Source: Naegleria gruberi
Taxonomy: Eukaryota
Length of the DNA stretch: 64,000 nucleotides
Assembly: GCA_000004985.1 (NCBI GenBank)
Contig: GG738905.1
Strand: one strand, 5' to 3'
The position numbers and the translations under genes are program-made. The notes under the pieces were generated by a model. It saw nothing but the letters and a program-made list of their open reading frames with translations. It was not told the origin of the DNA and made no database searches. Below, in pieces: positions 1,052-30,288 of the stretch; positions within the stretch are counted from its first letter, which is position 1; each line of letters starts with the position of its first letter.

Positions 1052-3145
1052 ATGAATTACATTAGACAGAGATTTTTATTGGTTGTTTTGTTGTTGGTAA
1101 TTGTTAGCACTATACCTTCTTCGGAATGTAAAATTAACAAACAAGAATTTGATCCAAATAATTTTTTTAACTTTGTACAAATAACAGATGTTCATATTGA
1201 AGATTTCACATCATTGTTAAATAGACCTTCATTTCTAAAGGAAGCACAAGAAAGGTACAATGATTATATTACACTAACTCAGAATATATTACCAAATTTT
1301 GTAAAACCTCATGTAATAACAATAACAGGTGATTTAACTCATGCAATTGCTCTGAATTTTGCTAACAGATCATTGGACTGGATTGACCGAAAGATAAATA
1401 TCTATGTTCCTGGACAATGTGAAGAACAATGGGAGTTTTATTCAAATATTACAAATCTTGCTAATGAACAGTTAGTTAATTCAATGAAAAATTCACACAG
1501 CTCAATCAAGATTGTTTATCCATTTGAGGAGGATATTTCAAATCAAAGAATATTTGATTTACCAGGAAACCATGATGCATTTGGTGTTAGTAATAAGATG
1601 GATGAAAACAAATGGCTATTTTTGAAATATTCTAAAAGTGCAAAGTTTTTTAATAACGGTCAATTTTATGTTTTTGATTTGAAAAATAATTTTGGAAAAT
1701 TTAGATATTTAATGTTTGACTCAACTCCAATAATTGGAAGTTATAGACCTGTGAATTTTTTCTCTTCAATTCAAATTTCACAATTGAGAAAACTTGAAGA
1801 ATTTTTGAGTAGTAACTCTGAAGGAATTTCACAAACATTTGCTTTTGGCCACTATCCATCATCAATGATTTCAATTATTGAGAATGATGGATCTGTATCT
1901 AATACTTATACAATTCAAGATTTTTACAAAAGATTTAATATTATTTCATATTTTAGTGGACATTTACATAAGGAATTCTTTGAAATGTCAAAATATATGC
2001 CAAAGAGTGGACATATTGAAATTCAAAGTCCTGATTTTAAAAAGGAGAGAAGTTTTAAAATTATAACAATGGATAATAATAGAATTGGGTTTAAGGATTT
2101 TACTGTTAGCGAACTGGAGAAAAAACCAGGAGTAATTATTTCGCATCCAAAGGATTGTAGATTTATCACTGATAGAGAGCCAAAAGTGTTCAATGATAAT
2201 TTCATTAGATTATTCATCGTTTATCCATATAATATTGAAAGTGACAAGTTGAATGTTATTGTAAAGCTTGATGGAAATGTTATGGATGAAAATCTCATAA
2301 TAACTAGAGGCCAATCCGAGTATAGAATCAATTTTGATTTCAATAATTTACCAAATGATTCCTCTATCCACAAAATAACTGTAGAATTTGATGGAAGCTC
2401 CATAGTTGAACATTTATTTACAAAGGATGATTCACTTTGTGAACCAGTAAATCTCTCACGCACAGATACAATAAGGTCATTTATTTCATGGTGCGTTTTG
2501 AGCTTGGATTGGAGAACAATATTTAGAGATGTTACTCATTACTCTTGTATTGCATCTGTATTCATATTATTAGCATCAAAATTTATGTTTTTAAGGAGAG
2601 TTACATTTATTGAAGTGATATCACTAGTGCTCCAATCTGTTTCTATGAGATATGGTCTTTGGTTTTTAGGAGTACTAACTGAAGATAATAGATTTGGAGG
2701 ATTACTCAATTTAACATACTTTTACTTTAATTCTGATCCAATCAATACACTAGAACCTATTCACAAATTGGAGCCATTCACTGCTCTCTCAGCTCATTTC
2801 AATAGAGTTACCATTATTGATGACAGCTCTCTATTTTTCACACTTATTGGTCCAACTTTCGTTTTCTCACATTTGGCAATTATTATTGGATACCTATTAT
2901 TGGAATGTCTCGACAGGATTGAAAGCAGATATCACAAAAAATATTTCAAATTGAGAATACTCTTATTTCTAATTATTTCCATTTCTCATATGGTTGGATT
3001 TTTCAATTTCTATAGAAAATATGTTAGATCATATGGCAAAATTGTCTTATTCACATCATTTAACAATGTAATGTTCCCATTTTTGAATATGTCAATAATG
3101 GCAGCTCGAACATACAACGATTGTACAAAGCAAAAAGTTGAATAA
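1052..3145 (+). CDS. TMEM62-like transmembrane metallophosphoesterase (697 aa): signal peptide, calcineurin-like phosphoesterase domain, C-terminal multi-pass membrane region
   Basis: N-terminal hydrophobic signal (LLVVLLLVIVSTIPSS). Metallophosphoesterase motifs are present in order: DVH (ITDVHIED), GDxxH (ITGDLTHA), GNHD (LPGNHDAFG), GHLH (FSGHLHKE). Several predicted TM helices follow in the C-terminal 250 aa, which is the architecture of TMEM62. No intron. Confidence 0.6.
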   Translation: MNYIRQRFLLVVLLLVIVSTIPSSECKINKQEFDPNNFFNFVQITDVHIEDFTSLLNRPSFLKEAQERYNDYITLTQNILPNFVKPHVITITGDLTHAIALNFANRSLDWIDRKINIYVPGQCEEQWEFYSNITNLANEQLVNSMKNSHSSIKIVYPFEEDISNQRIFDLPGNHDAFGVSNKMDENKWLFLKYSKSAKFFNNGQFYVFDLKNNFGKFRYLMFDSTPIIGSYRPVNFFSSIQISQLRKLEEFLSSNSEGISQTFAFGHYPSSMISIIENDGSVSNTYTIQDFYKRFNIISYFSGHLHKEFFEMSKYMPKSGHIEIQSPDFKKERSFKIITMDNNRIGFKDFTVSELEKKPGVIISHPKDCRFITDREPKVFNDNFIRLFIVYPYNIESDKLNVIVKLDGNVMDENLIITRGQSEYRINFDFNNLPNDSSIHKITVEFDGSSIVEHLFTKDDSLCEPVNLSRTDTIRSFISWCVLSLDWRTIFRDVTHYSCIASVFILLASKFMFLRRVTFIEVISLVLQSVSMRYGLWFLGVLTEDNRFGGLLNLTYFYFNSDPINTLEPIHKLEPFTALSAHFNRVTIIDDSSLFFTLIGPTFVFSHLAIIIGYLLLECLDRIESRYHKKYFKLRILLFLIISISHMVGFFNFYRKYVRSYGKIVLFTSFNNVMFPFLNMSIMAARTYNDCTKQKVE

Positions 3146-3155
3146 ACTCCATTAT

Positions 3156-3983
3156 CTACTTGTCAAATACCTTTAGACTTTCCAAACAAGAGTCAACTAT
3201 TAAACTCTCCTTTGAATTCAACTTGTTAACTAAATCATATAATTCCTCACTATCCTTGAATCCTTGCTCAAATTTTTTCAACGTGGTTGCTATAAGTTTT
3301 TGATTTACAGGCATATTAAGATCTACTAAACTCTTGGTCGTTTGATTATTTAACGAGTTTTGCTGTTGTGATTGCATATATCTCAAATATAATTCATCCG
3401 TAGATGACATTCCATATCGTTGATTAATCTTTTCCTCTGGTTCTTCATTATTCTTTCGTTTTGCCAGCAGAACATCCACATAATAATACATGAAAACAGT
3501 GTGGAGAAATATTTGTTGTTCCTCTTTAGTACGTAATTGAGCAACAAGTCTTTGAAATTCAATTGTATGTTTAGCAAAATATTCTAAATTATCCTCAAAG
3601 AACTGTAAAGTATTAAAAACAAATGGAGTGAAATTTGCGTTTGGTAAAGCCTTTTTTCTTAACTTTTCCAAATTCTTTTGTTTCTTTTCTAAAATTTCAA
3701 TTTTTGTTAATTCCTTTTCCTTTTCTAACTTTTTAGCTTCCTCCTCCTCTTTTTTACTTATCTTTTCTTGTTGTTTTAAAAGCATGGTTAGGAAATCCTT
3801 TGTATTTGATTTATTTGCACTCGTCTTTTTTCTCTTTTCTTCCTCGAATTGTTTCATAAATTCCTCCAGGAAGGGAGCATTTAGTTTACTCTTTTCCGAT
3901 GGTTGTTTACTTGATGTTTTCATCTGAGGAAGGGAGGAATTCGGTTTTTTGATAGCAGTTTGTGGTTGTGCTCGTTTCTTCAT
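3156..3983 (-). CDS. K/E-rich coiled-coil protein, unknown function (275 aa)
   Basis: Long minus-strand ORF with charged low-complexity sequence (EEEAKKLEKEKELTKIEILEKKQKNLEKLRKK). Overlapping plus-strand ORFs look like antisense artefacts. Confidence 0.4.
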   Translation of the reverse strand: MKKRAQPQTAIKKPNSSLPQMKTSSKQPSEKSKLNAPFLEEFMKQFEEEKRKKTSANKSNTKDFLTMLLKQQEKISKKEEEEAKKLEKEKELTKIEILEKKQKNLEKLRKKALPNANFTPFVFNTLQFFEDNLEYFAKHTIEFQRLVAQLRTKEEQQIFLHTVFMYYYVDVLLAKRKNNEEPEEKINQRYGMSSTDELYLRYMQSQQQNSLNNQTTKSLVDLNMPVNQKLIATTLKKFEQGFKDSEELYDLVNKLNSKESLIVDSCLESLKVFDK

Positions 3984-5680: not shown

Positions 5681-5942
5681 TTTTTTCAGTTACTAATCAT
5701 ACAATTACAATGAATATTGCACATTTGATCATCAAATACATCCTATTACAATAATGTAAAACCATAGATGGTCAACCATAATTGAAACATTTGAATTGTT
5801 TACAATGAAATAGATTACTCCGACTTGGATTCTTCACAAAGATGACCATGAGCCTGTACTGTACCTTAATAGTTAACGTAGTTGATGCCGATTGGGAAAA
5901 CTGTAGTTAGCAGATAAACAACATCTTTAAAAAAAACACCAC

Positions 5943-6955
5943 ATGACCACACAACAAGAATCACTGAGGACTTGGTTAATTTGTTGTCTCTTTGTAGTAG
6001 CTTTTATTGCCTCCATACAACCATATTACTCTGTATTATCAACAACAACCACTAATACATCATCATCAAGTTGTTCAACAGAGGATGGTTATCTGATTTA
6101 CAACAGGAAGCAATAACATTGCAAAATACTGTATCCAAGTTGGAGAAGGCCGTTGGAGTGTTGAATACAACCAATACTAATAGTACCTCACAAATAATTG
6201 CAATGAGAGTTTCTCAGTTGAAAAAGGTAAAGACAGCCCTTAATAATCTTAACTTGGAAATTCAAGTTATTAGTGATAGATGTAATAATTATGATGGAGA
6301 TGATTGTAACATTACAAGAGCATTGAATATTACTGGTGAATTTATGTATTTTAGTTTTGACAATGGTGATTTAGCTGACAAGTATGGAATTCCAACTGAA
6401 TCCTATGGAATGTCATTCAGTGATGCTTCCCCTAGAAAGCCATATTATGGTAAATATGCTGTGTTCAACAAAGCTACTTCTTCAAACTTTAATACAAATA
6501 GTCCAACATGGGTAACTTTTGGTACTGGTAAATCTCTTTCACTGTGGCTTAGAAAGTTAACTAATACGGATTCAGGTGTTGTTTGGAGCTTTCTAATGAG
6601 CCAACCTCCTTTATTTCAACACATGGGAAGTAATGGTTTAGCTTCAAGTGATAATCTTGAATTTTATTGGAAAACATCATCAACATTACCAATAAGGTTT
6701 TATTCTTCATCCAAATTGTTAGACAATGAATGGCATCATCTTGCTGTTGTTTGCAAGGCAACTGGAGTTGATATTTATATTGATGGAGTTTTAGACAATT
6801 CCAGTTCATCAACTTTTGATCCAGTAACAAGTAATATTAAGTTTGGCGGCCTCCAAGGTATCAACTCTGCTTTTTTCAGTGGTCACATGGACGAAATTAG
6901 AATGTTCAATGTTGAATTAACAGCTGCCCAAATCCAACAAATTTATAATTATTAA
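5943..6955 (+). CDS. signal-anchored protein with a C-terminal laminin-G/concanavalin-A-like lectin domain, 2 exons
   Basis: Exon 1 (5943..6032) encodes MTTQQESLRTWLICCLFVVAFIASIQPYYS, a hydrophobic signal/anchor. A 38-nt intron at 6033..6070 (GTATTA..CAAG) has ACTAAT 15 nt upstream of the acceptor. Exon 2 (6071..6955) has a LamG/pentraxin-like jelly-roll C-terminus (WHHLAVVCKATGVDIYIDGVLD...GHMDEIRMFNVELTAAQIQQIY). Confidence 0.5.
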
Positions 6956-7039
6956 ATCCCACTCAACAGAGTTGGTAAATGAATAAATTCAATATTGTTT
7001 ATTTACATATTAGTACATTTCAATAACCTGAAGAATTTC

Positions 7040-7486
7040 TTACTTCATAAAGGTCAAACATTTTTCAATCATTAGACTTTCATCAATTTCAGAACCATGT
7101 GAACATTGAATAGTTCCAGTCATTCCTTTAAATTTTTTCTTAACTAAATTTGTAGCTGCAGTAAATAAAAACTTTTCCCAAACATTGGTTTCATCCGGAC
7201 ACCAAGTAAGGAACATTATCTTACTTCTGATTCCTTCTCTGAGTTGAGTATTTTCAGTAGGCATTTCGAAACTCAATAAATAGCAGATGAAACGAGTGTT
7301 CTTTGGAGGAAGTTTTGGGATCAATTCGTCCAATGTGGCAAGGTTGGTCAATTCTGCATCAATTTGAATGAAATTGTCTTGCATTTTCAATACTAGAAAC
7401 TTTACATCCTTATAGACACCTTTTCCTAATCTCATTTCGTCGTAGTTTTTGACTACTTCATCGTTGATATCACAATTTTGCAACAT
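7040..7486 (-). CDS. ADF-H domain protein (cofilin/ADF/GMF family), about 148 aa
   Basis: ADF-homology pattern CDINDEVVKNYDEMRLGKGVYKDVKFLVLKMQDNFIQID ... RFICYLLSFE ... KIMFLTWCPDETNVWEKFLFTAATNLVKKKFKGMTG. Start is taken at the internal ATG (MLQNCDIN) because the upstream part of the track ORF has no domain homology. Confidence 0.55.
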   Translation of the reverse strand: MLQNCDINDEVVKNYDEMRLGKGVYKDVKFLVLKMQDNFIQIDAELTNLATLDELIPKLPPKNTRFICYLLSFEMPTENTQLREGIRSKIMFLTWCPDETNVWEKFLFTAATNLVKKKFKGMTGTIQCSHGSEIDESLMIEKCLTFMK

Positions 7487-7782
7487 TGTTATAAACTGGT
7501 TGTTTTGATTTTTGTTTTGATAATATTGAAGGTTTGGAACAAAAGATTTAGCAGGATTTAAGCTCACTTGAACTGTATCAAAATGAAGACAGGTGATTAA
7601 CTTGAAAGATTGGTGGTGCATCAACCAATAGAATTGTTGTATTTTTGATGGACAAGCGGAATTTTGCATTTCATCAACTTGGTATTGTAAACTTTCCAAT
7701 ACAAAGATCACAAATAAATTTGATACAAAATTCAATTAAATAATTTTAAAACATTAAATTTGAGTGGAATTTTTAGAAAAAA

Positions 7783-9528
7783 ATGGAATCACCTCTCAAA
7801 AAGAAGAAACTCGATCACAACACAATAATACCACGAGAGGAAGAAAATATTACTTCTAATGAAAATGTTAAAATAATATTTTCTAATGAATTATCAGAGA
7901 GTTTAATGTTGAAGAAAAAACTAGGAGGAAATAAAGTCCGAACTTTCCATATAATGATGTCATCCTCCTCTGTTAGTATTGATGGTTTATATGATATAGA
8001 TTCGAAGCAAGTAAGAGCGTGTCCACAGAGGAAATGGTTAATTCTTGGTACAGGTAAAGAGATTTTAATATATGATTCGGAAAGTGGGAAATTGCTACGA
8101 ACAATTAAATTAAGGCATTATTTATTTGATTTGGATAGTAGTGGGGAATGTTTGTACATCTATTCGGATAGGAGGATGAGGAAAACGAAACTTGATTTAT
8201 CTTCGGAATGGAAAAGCTGTAAATTTTCAGTGGATCGCTTTACTGTTTGTGAATCCAAGAATGAAATTTATACCATTCACAAGTTGGATATCACTGTTTT
8301 GGATTCTAATAATGGCTCAGTTAAGAGGAGCATTGACATAGGTGAGGATTTCAGTAAGAAGTGGAGATGCACAAAAATTTCATACGACGAGAAGGAGGGA
8401 AAGATTTATCTTTCAGGTAGGGCTGCATTAGAATCAGATGACAGCAGTACTAGTTCAAATGATTCTTCAGATGAAGAACCTGGTGGTTGCGGTGTTATCA
8501 TCGTTGAGGAACGAACTGAGGAACGCAATTATGTAAAATGTGAGGATGGTGTTGATTTTACCATGCCATTTGGAAAGTATTTTGCGTGTTTCACATTTTC
8601 TGATATGGCGTATATCTATGATTCTAAGACAAAAGATTTATTGTCAACCTTTTACTCTACGGATATCTGTGAAGAAGACGAAAGGATCACTTATTTTGAC
8701 AGCGTTACTAATACATTATTCTGTCAAAAAAAAGAAAGAATTTACTGTGGAAAACTTAACATTATGGAGAGCTTAATTGAGACACCAATCAACAAAGAAA
8801 CATGCTTTGCTCTTGAGAAATTGGGAGGTAAATTACCAACAGCTATTACAATGTTTCAATCTACCAATTCATTTAATTTTCCAGAATGCTTAGAGTACTT
8901 GACTGGAATTAAGTTTGCAAATAGGAAGTTGTGGTACATTGATGAAGAGATTGCAAAATATTTTACATTTAAAAAACGCTCGGAACCCTCAACAACAATG
9001 AAGAAATGGATGAAAGAAAATGATGCCATATTGATTGGAGGTTGTTATGACGATTCAAAATTGGAACGTAACAAGTTTGGAGTTTGTCTCTTTGCAAAGA
9101 AATCAGAAGTTTCTAACACAACAAGTGGTGATTTCCCAATTTATTTGTATTACAAAAAAAATAATGATAATAATAATGTAATTAAGAGGTTTTATCTATC
9201 AGAGTTTATTTCCAAATTGGGGACTGCAGAGCTAGTCAAAGAAGAAGATAACTATTTGATTTATTTTGAAAAAATTTATGAAGAATTATTGAAACAAGGA
9301 ATTATTGATTCAGAAAAGAGAGAACTCAATCAATCTCTTTTATTTGAGCAATATCAGAAACTGTTTTGTGATATTAACGAAAAATATGGAAGTTTGGGAC
9401 AGCATTTCCAATTTTCAACAATTAGATTTGAACAAAAAGATTACAAAAAGATTGATTTGCTTGTATTATCTGAATATTGTAGTAATTATTGTGTTGTAAA
9501 TCTGGATGATGTTTATTGGAATAAGTAA
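7783..9528 (+). CDS. hypothetical protein (581 aa)
   Basis: Long uninterrupted ORF with an A-rich Kozak-like context (gaaaaaaATGgaa). Mixed composition with Ser/Asp-rich patches. No family recognised by eye. Confidence 0.4.
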   Translation: MESPLKKKKLDHNTIIPREEENITSNENVKIIFSNELSESLMLKKKLGGNKVRTFHIMMSSSSVSIDGLYDIDSKQVRACPQRKWLILGTGKEILIYDSESGKLLRTIKLRHYLFDLDSSGECLYIYSDRRMRKTKLDLSSEWKSCKFSVDRFTVCESKNEIYTIHKLDITVLDSNNGSVKRSIDIGEDFSKKWRCTKISYDEKEGKIYLSGRAALESDDSSTSSNDSSDEEPGGCGVIIVEERTEERNYVKCEDGVDFTMPFGKYFACFTFSDMAYIYDSKTKDLLSTFYSTDICEEDERITYFDSVTNTLFCQKKERIYCGKLNIMESLIETPINKETCFALEKLGGKLPTAITMFQSTNSFNFPECLEYLTGIKFANRKLWYIDEEIAKYFTFKKRSEPSTTMKKWMKENDAILIGGCYDDSKLERNKFGVCLFAKKSEVSNTTSGDFPIYLYYKKNNDNNNVIKRFYLSEFISKLGTAELVKEEDNYLIYFEKIYEELLKQGIIDSEKRELNQSLLFEQYQKLFCDINEKYGSLGQHFQFSTIRFEQKDYKKIDLLVLSEYCSNYCVVNLDDVYWNK

Positions 9529-23807: not shown

Positions 23808-26501
23808 TTAAATAAACAATACGGATAAAATAGAAATGATTATTACATCTAAACTAAGGATGGCCATGAATGATGAATTAATTACAGAACCTCCACCAAC
23901 TACTTTCTTACTTTGGCTAGTGATTGGACAATTAGATGCCATTATTTGGTAGGATCCATAATAATCCAATCCTATTTCAATACCATTTGTTGTCTTTGAT
24001 ATCTTTGAAATTCCACCATTTCCAACAGTACTTCCAATAGAGTAGACCTTTGAATTAATACTCACACATGATGCACTTGAAATCTGTTGAAGAACTACAG
24101 TTCCCTTTGATTTTGGAGGAACTTCAACAGTAATAGAAAAGAGGTTATTAGAATTGGACCAATACACTGATAACTTTCCGTTTGGAGTTTGTACTGCTCC
24201 TTTAGCCCATGTTAATGAACCAGTTTGAGGTTTTACAACCCATTCAGAGTAACCAGTACTAGTAGGTCTGATTCCTAGAACGTATTTTGAAAGCAATGGA
24301 GAAACGCCACCACTCCAAGCATGAGCAAAACTGTTTGAGGCGCTTTGAGTGGCTCCAATTTCAATACTTTCCCAAAAAGCATTGGTAAAGTAAGGTCCCT
24401 CAACAGTCATTGGTGTCCAAACTGAATTAATAATATCAAATGCATGATCTTCTCTATTTGATTCAAATGCTGCTGCTGCATGGAAGTAAGAAATGTATGG
24501 AGAGGTAAAAGATGCTCCAGCATTCTTGAATGTTAAATAATTAGAGCCAGACTTCAATTGATCTTTCATAGTATCCAGTAATGTGCTGGAAAAGTTCTTT
24601 CCTCTCAAAGATGCAATGCCTGATAATATTGCGAATGCATTGGTATCCTGAGCTATGCCAGACTTTTGATCTGAAATAATGTAAGTACCCGAGTTTGTAT
24701 CAAACAACTTTTCATTAACTAGTTGTTTTGTAGAGTTAGCTCTTATTAAGTACGTTTCAGCCAAATTTGTTTCTCCAACTGCTTTTGCCAAAACTGAAGC
24801 AGATTCCATTGCCATAGCATATTGAATATTTAGTTTTGTAAATCTTCCCAAAAGCATTCCTAAACTTGGATAAAAGTCATAGGTCCAATTTGGATTAACA
24901 CCTTGCAACAAACCATCACTACCTTTAAGAGAATCGAAAGCATTAATGAGTAATTTCAATCTTGTCCATTGTTCCTTAACAAAAGATAAATCGCCAGAAT
25001 ATAGATAGTATTCCTCAATAGCTGATAACGAAGCTAAAAAGTATGTATAACTGTAAAATATTGGTGTTACAAAATCGTCAGATGGATCAATGGTTTGATA
25101 AGGGAAACCAGTACCAATTCTAGAAGAAACAAATCCACTTTTCAATTGATAGGATGTGCATATTCCAAGAGTTCCACTTGCATATTCATTAGCATAATAA
25201 GAATAGTATAATAATGGGCCTGCTACGAGTAAGTCACCACTCCAAACATTACGATCTCTCTTAGCACCATCCAGAATTACAGCTACAGGGTTGGTTCCAA
25301 CTCCAAAATCATGAGCTGATTGTTTTGATGTGAGAGGATCTTGATGAAGAATGCTACCACTGACATCAACTACTTTAAGATTCTTAATAAATGCACTTTG
25401 ATACTTTTTAGCAGAAAATCCAACTCCACCTGGAACAACTGATGGGATGTATGGATTAGTGGACTGAGGAAGATTAATATCAAATATCAAGGCACCATCT
25501 ATATAAACCTTAAATACAAGTTGATTAACAGAAGCAAATACATCATACCATTGATTTTCAACCAAGTTAGGAAGCGAAGTATTGTAATACAAGGTTTCAT
25601 AAGGGTAAAGCTCTTGTGCACTTATTACTTGAATCATATTTGGATTATGAGAACTATTTAGGCTATTTAAGGTGACTCTTGTTTCAGAATAGTCGTTTGA
25701 TCTAATAGCAAAAGAAATACCATTCTTCATAAATAGAGTAGAGAAGGATACATTATAATTAATCCATGACATTCCCTTTAAAAAGACACCTGCAGTACCT
25801 GGTGAAATATAAAGACCTTGATCAGTGCTAATAAACCCAGGTTGAACAGTTCTTGGTGGGACCATGTTCAATTGTAAAGTTCTTACCCCCATATTCCACA
25901 TCTTGTTGTAAACCTCATTAGAACAAGAGAAAGCACCATTAGATTGAGAAGGATCTCTGGTATAGATAGCTGATGTGAATGAAACAGAAGAGATGGTAAT
26001 AGAAGCTCCAACAGTAAGTAATTCAATTCTCTGATAACGTTGAGCTCCTTGGATACCATTTGTATCAAAATGGCCAGCTATTTCAATGGTATGGATATTT
26101 ACTCTGTCCAAATCAAAGGCACGAATCATTGGATTGAACAACATGTCGCCATCCTTAATATTTGGAAGACTTTCAGAATAGGATACTCTAATTTCTATTG
26201 GACTTTGAGAAATGGATGCAATGTCAAACATTGGAAAACCAGCAACATTTTGTCCATAATCCAAAACAATGGAAGCAAGATTACCAGACATGTCATTATT
26301 GAGAGTAAATGGAAACATTCCATCAGCACCTGCAACAGTAACACTACCATTCACAGATAAAACAGATTTTGGTTTTTGGACAAGTGGCAAATCAGCAATA
26401 CTGCTGTCACCATTCACAAACATTTCATTGAGGTTAACCCACAACGCAACCAAAACGCTTAATACCAAGCATAAAACAGCTCTACTAGTTGTAGTTGTCA
26501 T
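23808..26501 (-). CDS. secreted (alpha/alpha)6-barrel glycoside hydrolase, alpha-L-rhamnosidase (GH78)-like, 897 aa, intronless
   Basis: Signal peptide MTTTTSRAVLCLVLSVLVALWVNL. The motif KRDRNVWSGD resembles the GH78 catalytic-domain R(D/E)RxGWxGD box. Size and composition fit bacterial or fungal rhamnosidases. The family is not certain (GH78 versus a related six-hairpin glycosidase). Confidence 0.5.
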   Translation of the reverse strand: MTTTTSRAVLCLVLSVLVALWVNLNEMFVNGDSSIADLPLVQKPKSVLSVNGSVTVAGADGMFPFTLNNDMSGNLASIVLDYGQNVAGFPMFDIASISQSPIEIRVSYSESLPNIKDGDMLFNPMIRAFDLDRVNIHTIEIAGHFDTNGIQGAQRYQRIELLTVGASITISSVSFTSAIYTRDPSQSNGAFSCSNEVYNKMWNMGVRTLQLNMVPPRTVQPGFISTDQGLYISPGTAGVFLKGMSWINYNVSFSTLFMKNGISFAIRSNDYSETRVTLNSLNSSHNPNMIQVISAQELYPYETLYYNTSLPNLVENQWYDVFASVNQLVFKVYIDGALIFDINLPQSTNPYIPSVVPGGVGFSAKKYQSAFIKNLKVVDVSGSILHQDPLTSKQSAHDFGVGTNPVAVILDGAKRDRNVWSGDLLVAGPLLYYSYYANEYASGTLGICTSYQLKSGFVSSRIGTGFPYQTIDPSDDFVTPIFYSYTYFLASLSAIEEYYLYSGDLSFVKEQWTRLKLLINAFDSLKGSDGLLQGVNPNWTYDFYPSLGMLLGRFTKLNIQYAMAMESASVLAKAVGETNLAETYLIRANSTKQLVNEKLFDTNSGTYIISDQKSGIAQDTNAFAILSGIASLRGKNFSSTLLDTMKDQLKSGSNYLTFKNAGASFTSPYISYFHAAAAFESNREDHAFDIINSVWTPMTVEGPYFTNAFWESIEIGATQSASNSFAHAWSGGVSPLLSKYVLGIRPTSTGYSEWVVKPQTGSLTWAKGAVQTPNGKLSVYWSNSNNLFSITVEVPPKSKGTVVLQQISSASCVSINSKVYSIGSTVGNGGISKISKTTNGIEIGLDYYGSYQIMASNCPITSQSKKVVGGGSVINSSFMAILSLDVIIISILSVLFI

Positions 26502-26754: not shown

Positions 26755-28288
26755 ATGACAGATTCAAAAGAGTTCCACCCGATTGCTTGTAATTTTTGTA
26801 GACATCTACATAAACAATGGTAAGAATTTGATAATTATTATTTAAATTATTTAAATATGATGAAAAATTATTATAGTGGTAAGTTGTTGAAAGGAAACAT
26901 TTTTTAATAATAATTATGAAATAATAGGAAAACAATTACCGACATGTTCCAGATGTGCAACAAAAGGTATTACATGTGAATATAAAACACCAAAGAAGAG
27001 AAAGATTGCTTCGATATCATCAGCATCGGAATTGCCTGCAAAAGCAGTTTCAAAAGAAGTTGTGGAAAATAAGGATGTACCAGCTGATACAACAATTGTT
27101 TCTAGGTATTCAAAGCAATTTACAAAGAAACAAATAATTGATTTGTATTATGTGATGATTTGTGATCATTATATTATTGTTGAAAAAGAATTGTTGGAGA
27201 AGTACATCTTGAATGAGGAAATAACAGATCAGCAACCCTTAAAGAAGGAAATGAATGCCTTCTTTCATTCTATTCAAGCATTGTTGGAACAGAGATTTGG
27301 TTTTTGCGAAATTGCAGAAAAATCAGCCAAGAAATCAAGAGATTTACTATCAAAGATTTTTGATCAAGTTTCAAACTATTATGTTGCTTGCTGCTATTCA
27401 TCTCTTGGAATTTATGAAATAGGAACAGGAAGAGGAAAACTTGCAAAATTCTATATCAAAACAGCTAAATTTTACTTTGATGGGATTGAATTGGAAAAAC
27501 TTAATAATTCTGAACGTTTACTGCTCGAACTTATATCAGTAATGGAACTAATGATTGAGGATGATTTAGGCACGAACAAAATTCTAAAAGATTTCCCAAG
27601 TTACTTTTACATGGCAACCAGTACATCAGTTCCTCAACAATTTCTAGAAAAGATTCCACAACAAGTTGACTTATCAAATTTGGAGACGTATTTGGAAGTT
27701 ATTTGTCAAAGTCTCAAAGAATTTTTCATTTCTAAAGCAAAATCAACCAGATCACAATTTGACCTTATTTGGTATAGTGCTGGTTCTAATTATTATTTTG
27801 AAATAGTTCATTATGGACTGAAATTATTGTTTCTTATTCAAAATTGTCCAGAATATAGATCAGAAATTGAGCAAACTGCTTGTAAAATAACATTACTTTC
27901 AGATAGTGAATATTTTCCATTTACTACATTTGCTGCTATTCCTTATTTTACAATGGCTAGTAGAGTCCATGTACAAGTGGCCAAGGAAATTGAAAAGGGA
28001 TTGAGAAGCAATCTGTCTTATGATATTTATTCAATGATTACAAAGGATTACCGATCTCTGCATGTATTGAAATCACGTTATAAAAGAGTGAATGTTGTGG
28101 CTGGAAGTGTGATATTGGAAATGGAGGAAATATTGAAAAAAAGAGATATTGAACCAATCACCCAAGCAGAACACAACAGTGTATATTCTCCCCTTACTAA
28201 TTTCTTAGATATGTTGTTCAATCCAGACGATTCATTCAGCACTTCTATGATTTCCAGTTTAATGGACCCTTCACAAGATAAGATTTAA
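26755..28288 (+). CDS. Zn(II)2Cys6 binuclear-cluster transcription factor (candidate), 3 exons including a putative 2-nt micro-exon
   Basis: Exon 1 (26755..26819) encodes MTDSKEFHPIACNFCRHLHKQ plus TG. The downstream exon (26928..28288) encodes KQLPTCSRCATKGITCEYK.... Joining them through the 2 nt at 26882..26883 (flanked by TATAG| and |GTAAGT) gives C-x2-C-x6-C-x6-C-x2-C-x6-C exactly. A single-intron join instead gives W at the third Cys position. The C-terminal 400 aa has no family recognised. Confidence 0.5.
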
Positions 28289-29226: not shown

Positions 29227-30288
29227 ATGAGTAGTACTCTTGATTTACAAACAACTAATACCACATCAACAATGCCACACAGTTACTCGGAATCTGAGAT
29301 TCAAAACTTGGGTGATGATGTTTCTATTGATAGTGAAGAATTCAATAATACCGTAGTTGCTATGGACCAATTAACACTTGGTTCCACACCACTAGACGGT
29401 CTTACTGATAAGCAATTGGAAATATTGAAGAAGTTTACCCAAATGTTTGAAGATGACCGTTCCAAACTGACCCAACTTCAACAATATTATTGTTTCCATG
29501 ATAGATTCTGTTTTGTCAGATATTTGAAAGCCAGAGATTGGGACATTCCAAATGCTACTAAATTATTGAAGAGTTCTCTTACTTGGATTGAATCCTCATA
29601 CAAGCCATTTAGTTTAACTGCTAAACAATTATGGTTAGAAGCATCACCTGCCAAGACTTATATCAAGGGTCATGATAAGGCTGGTCGTCCAATTATTTAT
29701 CTTCATGCCGGTAGAGATTTCACAAATGATCCTGCTACTGGTGTTAGTTTACTTGTTTATAATTTGATTGCTGCCAGTTATAGAATGGGTCCAAATGGTT
29801 CTCAAATGACTTGGATTTGTGATTTCAGTTCCTACACAACAAAGTCTGCTCCTCCATTGGCAGTTTGTAAACAAGCTGTTGAAATTTTATCTTCACACTT
29901 CCCTGAAAGACTTGGTTTGTGTTTGATGGTCTTTGCTCCTAAGGTTTTCTATTGGTTCTTCAAATTAATTTCTCCTCTCATTCCACCTGTCACTAAGCAA
30001 AAGATTCAATTCTGTAAGGGCACCAAACAAAAGGATATGAGAGCATTCTTTGAACCATTTGTGGATATGTCTCAACTTGAAAAGAAATATGGAGGTGATC
30101 AAGATTTCACATACAATCATAAGGAAATGTGGGCTCACGAAATTGAACATGATTTGAAGAGATTGCACAAAATTAAGGAAGCTGGTGGTATGAAACCAGA
30201 AGAAGCTGATGCTTTAATTAATGAACCAATTATTGACACTTTGGAAAAGCACAACAAGTTTTTCAAAGCCAGACATGCTTCCAAATAA
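29227..30288 (+). CDS. Sec14/CRAL-TRIO lipid-transfer protein (353 aa)
   Basis: CRAL-TRIO N-terminal helix region (FLKARDWDIPNATKLL). Lipid-binding core HDKAGRPIIYLHAGRDF...WICDFSSYT...HFPERLGLCLMVFAPKVFYWFFKLISPLI...KIQF. Intronless. Confidence 0.75.
   Translation: MSSTLDLQTTNTTSTMPHSYSESEIQNLGDDVSIDSEEFNNTVVAMDQLTLGSTPLDGLTDKQLEILKKFTQMFEDDRSKLTQLQQYYCFHDRFCFVRYLKARDWDIPNATKLLKSSLTWIESSYKPFSLTAKQLWLEASPAKTYIKGHDKAGRPIIYLHAGRDFTNDPATGVSLLVYNLIAASYRMGPNGSQMTWICDFSSYTTKSAPPLAVCKQAVEILSSHFPERLGLCLMVFAPKVFYWFFKLISPLIPPVTKQKIQFCKGTKQKDMRAFFEPFVDMSQLEKKYGGDQDFTYNHKEMWAHEIEHDLKRLHKIKEAGGMKPEEADALINEPIIDTLEKHNKFFKARHASK

Follow-up and report, generated by a model that had tools for sequence, protein, structure and literature searches.

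Can a protein-coding gene depend on an exon of only two nucleotides to complete its DNA-binding domain? This question is raised by NAEGRDRAFT_73457, a gene of Naegleria gruberi, which is a heterolobosean amoeboflagellate and not a fungus. The gene lies on the plus strand of a 64,000-nucleotide (nt) stretch of contig GG738905.1 (assembly GCA_000004985.1), hereafter called the window, whose G+C content is approximately 33%. An upstream open reading frame (ORF) encodes the first two cysteines of a Zn2Cys6 cluster and breaks off within the codon of the third (Cys3), and the last three cysteines lie in a long downstream ORF. Between the two ORFs, a dinucleotide TG is bordered on both sides by splice signals. 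The true coding sequence of NAEGRDRAFT_73457 (73457 for short) is most likely join(26755..26819, 26877..26878, 26928..28288), a reading of 475 codons that includes TG as a 2-nt coding micro-exon. The identity of the gene follows from a homology search, in which the ORF downstream of TG was 100% identical to a protein cluster holding XP_002671401.1/EFC38657.1. The cluster has three members, namely two ORF calls (from ENA and Logan contigs) and an N-truncated JGI model.

The anatomy of the three-exon structure is straightforward. Coding exon 1 (26755..26819) starts at an ATG with an in-frame TAA two codons 5' of it and ends with CAT AAA CAA TG, encoding MTDSKEFHPIACNFCRHLHKQ and the first two bases of the Cys3 codon. 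Intron 1 (26820..26876; 57 nt) begins with GTAAGA, ends with TTATTATAG, and interrupts the Cys3 codon in phase 2, at position +2 from the first base of that codon. The micro-exon TG (26877..26878) completes the Cys3 codon (TGT) with its T and opens the glycine codon that follows (GGA) with its G. Intron 2 (26879..26927; 49 nt) runs from GTAAGT to GAAATAATAG and interrupts that glycine codon in phase 1, at position +4. Coding exon 3 (26928..28288), which is preceded by AATAG, opens with GA AAA CAA TTA CCG ACA TGT, that is, with GA followed by KQLPTCSRCATKGITCEYK; it encodes Cys4-6 and a C-terminal region of about 400 amino acids (aa) up to a TAA stop. Exon 3 comprises 452 codons, and no stop interrupts its frame between 26930 and the one at 28288.

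All four splice signals are canonical and strong (ATG/GTAAGA, TTATTATAG/, GTG/GTAAGT and AATAATAG/, with the slash marking the junction), and the internal sites, TATAG/ and /GTAAGT, are no weaker than the outer ones. A first-pass annotation of this stretch had proposed the micro-exon, describing a good acceptor and a strong GTAAGT donor around TG, an exon 1 that ends at 26819 before GTAAGA, and a frame that resumes at 26928. These features are indeed seen in the sequence. It had set TG 5 nt too high, at 26882-26883, where the bases are the AG of the GTAAGT donor, and had given lengths of 62 and 44 nt for the two introns. Its translation is reproduced: inclusion of TG gives TGT GGA (Cys-Gly) and the spacing C-x2-C-x6-C-x6-C-x2-C-x6-C. 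Sequence features that characterize an ultra-short exon (15 nt or less) are found here, with a canonical 3' site directly before TG, a canonical 5' site directly after it, introns of viable length on both sides, and a dinucleotide whose inclusion is needed for the frame and restores a conserved cysteine. TG is very probably present in the mature mRNA.

Other ways of splicing the locus give less. Joining 26819 directly to 26928 does create a TGG codon, as the first-pass annotation had stated, but not the nonfunctional tryptophan-for-cysteine domain that it offered as an alternative. Skipping breaks the frame, and the product, MTDSKEFHPIACNFCRHLHKQWKTITDMFQMCNKRYYM followed by a stop, is a peptide of 38 residues that ends in ...HKQWKTITDMFQMCNKRYYM. 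All possible single introns with GT-AG or GC-AG ends were also enumerated for stop-free joins of the upstream to the downstream ORF, and each of the 19 in-frame solutions loses at least three of the six cysteines. Only the three-exon path preserves both the frame and all six cysteines, giving CNFCRHLHKQCGKQLPTCSRCATKGITC. As the only canonical path that joins exon 1 in frame to the long downstream ORF, it supports the micro-exon first proposed.

An artefact or noncanonical splicing would dispense with the micro-exon altogether, either through an assembly error in what would be a single intron or through an intron at 26820..26916. The latter join (26819 to 26917), worked out by hand, also yields TGT and an in-frame product, which reads Cys-Glu-Ile-Ile-Gly. 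However, it places nine residues between Cys3 and Cys4, where the family has six, exactly the spacing of the TG model, and it calls for an intron with GT...TA ends despite two perfect canonical introns in the same stretch. As for the assembly, a metagenome contig from ENA (L001), independently assembled, matches the window with 99.2% identity over 2.6 kb and shows no difference in TG or in either intron. This identity excludes a private assembly error, although the strain is too close to inform on conservation. Explanations of this kind are thus highly improbable.

Chance is a poor source of such an arrangement when strong signals are demanded. The pattern YAGNNGTAAGT occurs once on the two strands of the window, and this occurrence is the TG site. 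The 108-nt gap between exons 1 and 3 was shuffled 20,000 times with dinucleotide composition preserved and the outer splice sites fixed; success was defined as an internal exon of at most 30 nt that restored the frame and gave cysteine, with introns of at least 30 nt. Rescue occurred at a frequency of 5e-5 when a YAG acceptor and a GTAAG donor were required, and at 2.9% when any AG...GT was accepted. The introns themselves are unremarkable, in agreement with the first-pass annotation. Elsewhere in the window, the candidate introns between long ORFs measure 41, 45, 46, 48, 48, 50, 75, 157, 188 and 210 nt, with a mode of 41-50 nt, and use GTAAGT or GTATGT donors with TAG or CAG acceptors. Because these candidates have similar lengths and signals, introns of 57 and 49 nt appear ordinary for this genome.

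The spliced product has 475 residues and contains CNFCRHLHKQCGKQLPTCSRCATKGITC. It matches the Pfam family Zn_clus (PF00172) with 33.1 bits (E=6e-8), above the cut-off of 21, and a hypothetical in-frame version with tryptophan at the position of Cys3 scores 21.7 bits. The first 71 residues match solved Zn2Cys6 domains, including PUT3 (1ajy, E=1.6e-4), LAC9 and GAL4 (1d66, E=1e-3), and the printed PUT3 alignment spans the zinc cluster. The general six-cysteine pattern, C-x2-C-x6-C-x5-12-C-x2-C-x6-8-C, is present solely when TG is included. The product of NAEGRDRAFT_73457 is therefore predicted to be a complete Zn2Cys6 transcription factor, for which binding of zinc and DNA is suggested by the motif. 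Its C-terminal region of about 400 residues (27100-28285, plus strand) matches no Pfam entry, the fungal middle-homology domain included.

Relatives of the product place exon 1 in the same gene. When 1.84 billion representative proteins were scanned with HMMER, 125 homologues (best E=1e-89) were returned from N. gruberi, N. fowleri, N. lovaniensis, Willaertia magna and metagenomes, across which the C-terminal region is conserved and family-specific. JGI metagenomes scanned with the protein itself, and again with a four-sequence alignment, yielded no relatives. Among 140 family proteins fetched, 60 hold the full cluster, and the motif EFHPIACxxCxxxHK is found in these 60. Since exon 1 also contains this motif, it belongs to NAEGRDRAFT_73457. 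A family alignment of 21 members has the consensus HPIACxxCRKxHKxCDKxLPxCxxCxxRGxxCEY, with which exon 1 (EFHPIACNFCRHLHKQ) agrees at each residue. In this alignment, the cysteine completed by the micro-exon (C22) is at least 90% conserved, and the spacing between Cys3 and Cys4 is six. Among the transcription-factor families of Naegleria, Zn_clus is the largest; N. gruberi has 78 of these genes and N. fowleri has 56-58 (Herman et al., 2021, PMC8296547, Table S3). A literature search found no main-text mention of Naegleria together with Zn2Cys6 or Zn_clus, and nothing on Naegleria micro-exons.

The public annotation reads the locus differently. The JGI/NCBI model XP_002671401.1 starts at an ATG (26860..26862, plus strand) that lies inside intron 1 of the three-exon model, and its protein, MKNYYSG/KQLPTC..., has Cys4-6 only, with exon 1 absent. 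The borders of intron 2 are identical in both models. If the public model were essentially right, only intron 2 would be spliced, and the upstream ORF with Cys1-2 would be an unjoined relic. That the gene has been modelled in this manner (XP_002671401.1/EFC38657.1), with an intron 2 common to both structures, speaks for this possibility. Half of a Zn2Cys6 cluster, however, is unable to bind two zinc ions, and this is all the public-model protein holds. The features of exon 1 are also not those of a relic. Its ATG stands just 3' of an in-frame stop, it matches the family motif at every residue, and its end coincides with a strong donor, in the sole phase that TG can rescue. Moreover, between the window and L001, the coding sequence shows three synonymous differences, one non-synonymous difference and one in-frame 12-nt indel, and the sole difference in exon 1 is synonymous (GCT>GCA). 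These differences would fit, if weakly, a working gene that includes exon 1. Finally, JGI models of N. gruberi paralogues (54561 and 73153) are demonstrably N-truncated. It is accordingly quite improbable that the public model is correct as it stands; very probably, it misses the TG exon and truncates the N-terminus of the protein.

The truncations of the paralogue models take different forms. In 54561 (P0047), the modelled start falls within a simple intron that immediately precedes Cys3, so that the first exon, which carries Cys1-2, is missed; this was read from positions 255-440 of L007, an ENA contig from an N. gruberi-like strain whose 515-aa product is near-identical. In 73153 (P0005), the modelled start lies beyond the entire zinc cluster. 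Sixteen of the 140 family proteins fetched have the C-terminal half of the cluster only. As for the indel that separates the window from L001, it corresponds to AVSK at 27039-27050, in the linker 3' of the zinc cluster.

Is the position of the micro-exon exceptional within the family? Intron positions, numbered relative to the first base of the Cys3 codon, were compared in the DNA of eight homologues. In 73457, the introns lie at +2 and +4. Three genes of metagenome heteroloboseans (L003, ~2489-2526; L005, ~2009-2046; L008, ~1177-1221) have a phase-1 intron at +4, with the structure TGY G/GT...AG/AC, so that intron 2 of 73457 shares its exact position and phase with three homologues. Another three genes have a phase-2 intron at -4, namely L004 (similar to N. 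gruberi 82297; ~3062-3106), L006 (similar to N. fowleri FDP41_013612; ~957-1080) and L009 (~1519-1563). This intron is correctly spliced by public models in two cases (P0129 and P0133). The 54561-like paralogue on L007 has its intron at 0 (~385-433), with the same GTAAGA donor as intron 1 of 73457, and the N. fowleri gene FDP41_010721 (L002) has introns at -3 and +9. Introns near Cys3 thus occupy six positions in the family (-4, -3, 0, +2, +4 and +9), of which -4 and +4 are each found in at least three genes. These positions give the region around the Cys3 codon the appearance of a hot spot for the gain or sliding of introns.

The N. fowleri gene provides the closest counterpart. Outside N. 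gruberi, FDP41_010721 is the closest homologue of 73457, with which it shares approximately 40% identity. Its N. gruberi ortholog is 73153 (63% identity), and 73457 is therefore a sister paralogue. In FDP41_010721/FDP41_011179, a 12-nt micro-exon, CAATGCGATAAG, encodes QCDK and carries Cys3. It lies at positions 3774-3785 of L002, which is the N. fowleri sequence VFQX01000007.1 in reversed orientation (region 3706-3972), and the structure reads CAT AAG/GTAAGT(68 nt)AAAAG/CAA TGC GAT AAG/GTTAGT(187 nt)TTCAG/AAA CTC. Public N. fowleri annotations disagree on this exon: it is skipped in XP_044567455.1 (CRKMHK/KLPSC) and included in XP_044567429.1 and CAG4711921.1 (CRKMHKQCDKKLPSC). The last of these was probably taken from the Augustus gene set that Herman et al. 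(PMC8296547) built with transcript hints. A micro-exon covering Cys3, as predicted from the genomic sequences, is thus not unique to 73457; the two genes belong to one family, their micro-exons cover the same codon, and the N. fowleri exon is skipped by one public model.

The two micro-exons also differ in several respects. The N. fowleri exon measures 12 nt between phase-0 introns at -3 and +9, whereas the N. gruberi exon measures 2 nt with borders at +2 and +4, a displacement of 5 nt on each side. Skipping keeps the frame in the N. fowleri gene and breaks it in 73457. Furthermore, the flanking introns resemble each other in the N. fowleri gene but not in 73457. In N. fowleri (L002 3706-3773 versus 3786-3840), they are alike over approximately 55 nt, with a local alignment score of 33 against 18.4±2.9 in shuffles (P ~0.001), which hints that this micro-exon arose by tandem duplication of an intron plus a few exon bases. 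For the two introns of 73457, tandem duplication was rejected, as their global alignment score of 9 falls under the shuffle mean of 10.7. Simple duplication of an intron together with TG was likewise rejected, because the mRNA would also gain 2 nt, and an introner-like repeated element was discounted because the window holds no further copies of either intron beyond AT-rich 11-20-mers. On L002, a second Zn_clus gene (5814-7802; 639 aa), whose cluster has no introns, lies in tandem directly downstream of the micro-exon gene.

How might a 2-nt exon be processed? In the route proposed here, TG would lie between short introns of the ordinary U2 type, 57 and 49 nt in length. Only 2 nt separate the 3' site of intron 1 from the 5' site of intron 2, with U2AF expected at ..TATAG/ and U1 over positions -3 to +6 of TG/GTAAGT. 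The footprints of U2AF and U1 on these adjoining sites overlap, and simultaneous occupancy is not possible. Because of this overlap, the introns would be removed one after another. Each would be removed by intron definition, and after the first excision, the remaining intron would have an exon of normal size on that side. Either order of removal would give the same mRNA, with the junction string CATAAACAATGTGGAAAACAATTACC, through the part-spliced form CAATGTGGTAAGTTG if intron 1 is removed first or TTATTATAGTGGAAAACAA if intron 2 is removed first. Recursive splicing, which the first-pass annotation had listed as an alternative to the micro-exon, is consequently no rival to it, as recursive or sequential splicing is the likely processing route of such an exon. 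Skipping would instead yield CATAAACAATGGAAAACAATTACC, that is, ...CATAAACAATG joined to GAAAACAATT..., with a frameshift, an early stop and a non-productive mRNA.

Skipping may nevertheless be the usual outcome. If the donor at 26820 were mostly or always joined to the acceptor at 26927, the locus would be a decaying pseudogene, or unproductive splicing would hold its expression low, with regulated inclusion of TG in a minority of transcripts. Very short exons are generally prone to skipping (PMC4674806), and the homologous 12-nt exon is skipped in one N. fowleri gene model. An inverted repeat in the two introns could act in the same direction. Its arms are placed symmetrically with respect to the outer splice sites, the left arm (26826..26846, plus strand) 6 nt from the start of intron 1 and the right arm (26902..26922, plus strand) 5 nt from the end of intron 2; pairing of the arms would bring the outer donor and acceptor together. 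The picture of a dead gene, however, agrees poorly with an intact and conserved exon 3 of 452 codons and with strain differences that resemble purifying selection. Organisms with short introns generally splice by intron definition, each intron on its own, and at this locus the internal splice sites are at least equal to the outer ones in strength. Predominant skipping of TG is therefore regarded as improbable, and inclusion of the micro-exon remains the preferred reading.

The inverted repeat comprises 21 nt with 90% complementarity. Its score of 15 compares with 7.9±1.4 in dinucleotide shuffles (P ~5e-4) and with a maximum of 10 among 75 native AT-rich segment pairs of the window. The minimum-free-energy fold of 26810-26937 pairs both arms, yet its stability is not unusual (z = -1.05). 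The repeat may hold exons 1 and 3 together, may favour skipping, or may be a relic of intron origin. A more ambitious proposal combines these observations. TG would be constitutive; pairing of the repeat would hold exons 1 and 3 together while the introns are removed in a fixed order; and the 12- and 2-nt micro-exons would be intermediates of intron movement, arising by intron sliding or repeated gain at one hot spot. Were this combination correct, TG would rank second-smallest among all known eukaryotic exons and would be the first of ultra-short size from Discoba. As a whole, it is held to be unlikely.

Several points weigh against a 2-nt exon in NAEGRDRAFT_73457. Another public gene model exists for the gene, although its domain is incomplete. 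A homology search of a collection of 5.8 billion proteins found no product and no transcript-derived sequence spanning the TG junction. The position of intron 1 (+2) is unique among the loci examined. No ortholog of 73457 was found in another species. To our knowledge, a 2-nt exon has not been demonstrated in the lineage of Naegleria.

Confirmation of the TG exon would have consequences at several levels. The product of 73457 would be corrected from a half-cluster protein to a complete Zn2Cys6 transcription factor, and a systematic weakness in the annotation of Naegleria would be flagged within its largest transcription-factor family. The known range of exons under 3 nt would grow beyond land plants to include a deeply divergent amoeboflagellate whose introns are very short, and intron-definition splicing would be shown able to handle an exon of 2 nt. 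The Naegleria Zn_clus family would offer a compact natural series on intron-position shifts around a single codon. Moderate interest also comes from the frame-breaking cost of skipping TG.

Upstream of the gene and divergent from it lies a single-exon gene (23808-26501, minus strand) for an alpha-L-rhamnosidase-like protein of 897 aa, with a Bac_rhamnosid6H domain and its C-terminal domain. Downstream, positions 29227-30288 (plus strand) encode a CRAL/TRIO (Sec14-like) protein. A tRNA-Glu (TTC) at 63604-63675 (plus strand) is the sole Rfam or ARAGORN match in the window, and no further Zn2Cys6 genes were found in its 64 kb.

Compared with known systems, the predicted protein is most similar to Gal4/Put3-type domains (1d66 and 1ajy). 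It has the spacing C-x2-C-x6-C-x6-C-x2-C-x6-C followed by a basic linker, in addition to direct sequence and Pfam matches. It differs from them in its host, as Naegleria is not a fungus, and in its C-terminal region of approximately 400 aa without a Pfam match.

For the splicing arrangement, a first comparison is with the recursive splice sites, or ratchet points, of Drosophila, which leave zero nt and lie in very long introns. As in ratchet points, a 3' site stands almost directly before a strong 5' site (AG..GTAAGT), which implies stepwise removal. In contrast to them, 73457 has 2 nt between AG and GT, these nucleotides must be kept for the frame, and both introns are approximately 50 nt long. 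The site is therefore not a zero-length exon.

Stwintrons, the spliceosomal twin introns of fungi, offer a second comparison. They are removed by consecutive splicing reactions and have been linked to small shifts of intron position between homologues (PMC5639578, PMC5587772). 73457 resembles them in its complex intervening sequence and predicted consecutive removal, and position shifts also occur in the Naegleria family (-4, -3, 0, +2, +4 and +9). In a stwintron, however, the internal intron lies within the donor, branch point or acceptor of the external intron, whose signal works only once the internal intron has been excised, whereas each intron of 73457 has its own donor and acceptor, and 2 nt would be kept. 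The donors (GTAAGN) and acceptors (YAG) are complete, and the sole outer intron (26820-26927) leads to a frameshift.

A further parallel is provided by plants, in which single-nucleotide exons have been proven in APC11 and VPS55 (Guo and Liu, 2015, PMC4674806; Yu et al., 2022, PMC8831610). These 1-nt exons are routinely missed by annotation, resulting in shortened N-termini (PMC4674806, PMC8831610). Sequential splicing has been proposed for plant micro-exons, with one flanking intron often detained and spliced later (PMC8831610). As modelled here, NAEGRDRAFT_73457 shares with the APC11 and VPS55 cases an ultra-short coding exon between two canonical introns, a strong adjoining GTRAGT donor, and an exon left unannotated with a wrong or shorter N-terminus as the result. 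For the plant genes, too, sequential splicing is proposed because two spliceosomes cannot assemble on both sides together. For the plant exons, proof comes from RT-PCR and reporter assays, and conservation extends across land plants, whereas the exon predicted for 73457 measures 2 nt and belongs to a heterolobosean. Ultra-short exons are thus already known, down to 1 nt in plants, and what the TG of 73457 would add is an exon of extreme size in a new lineage.

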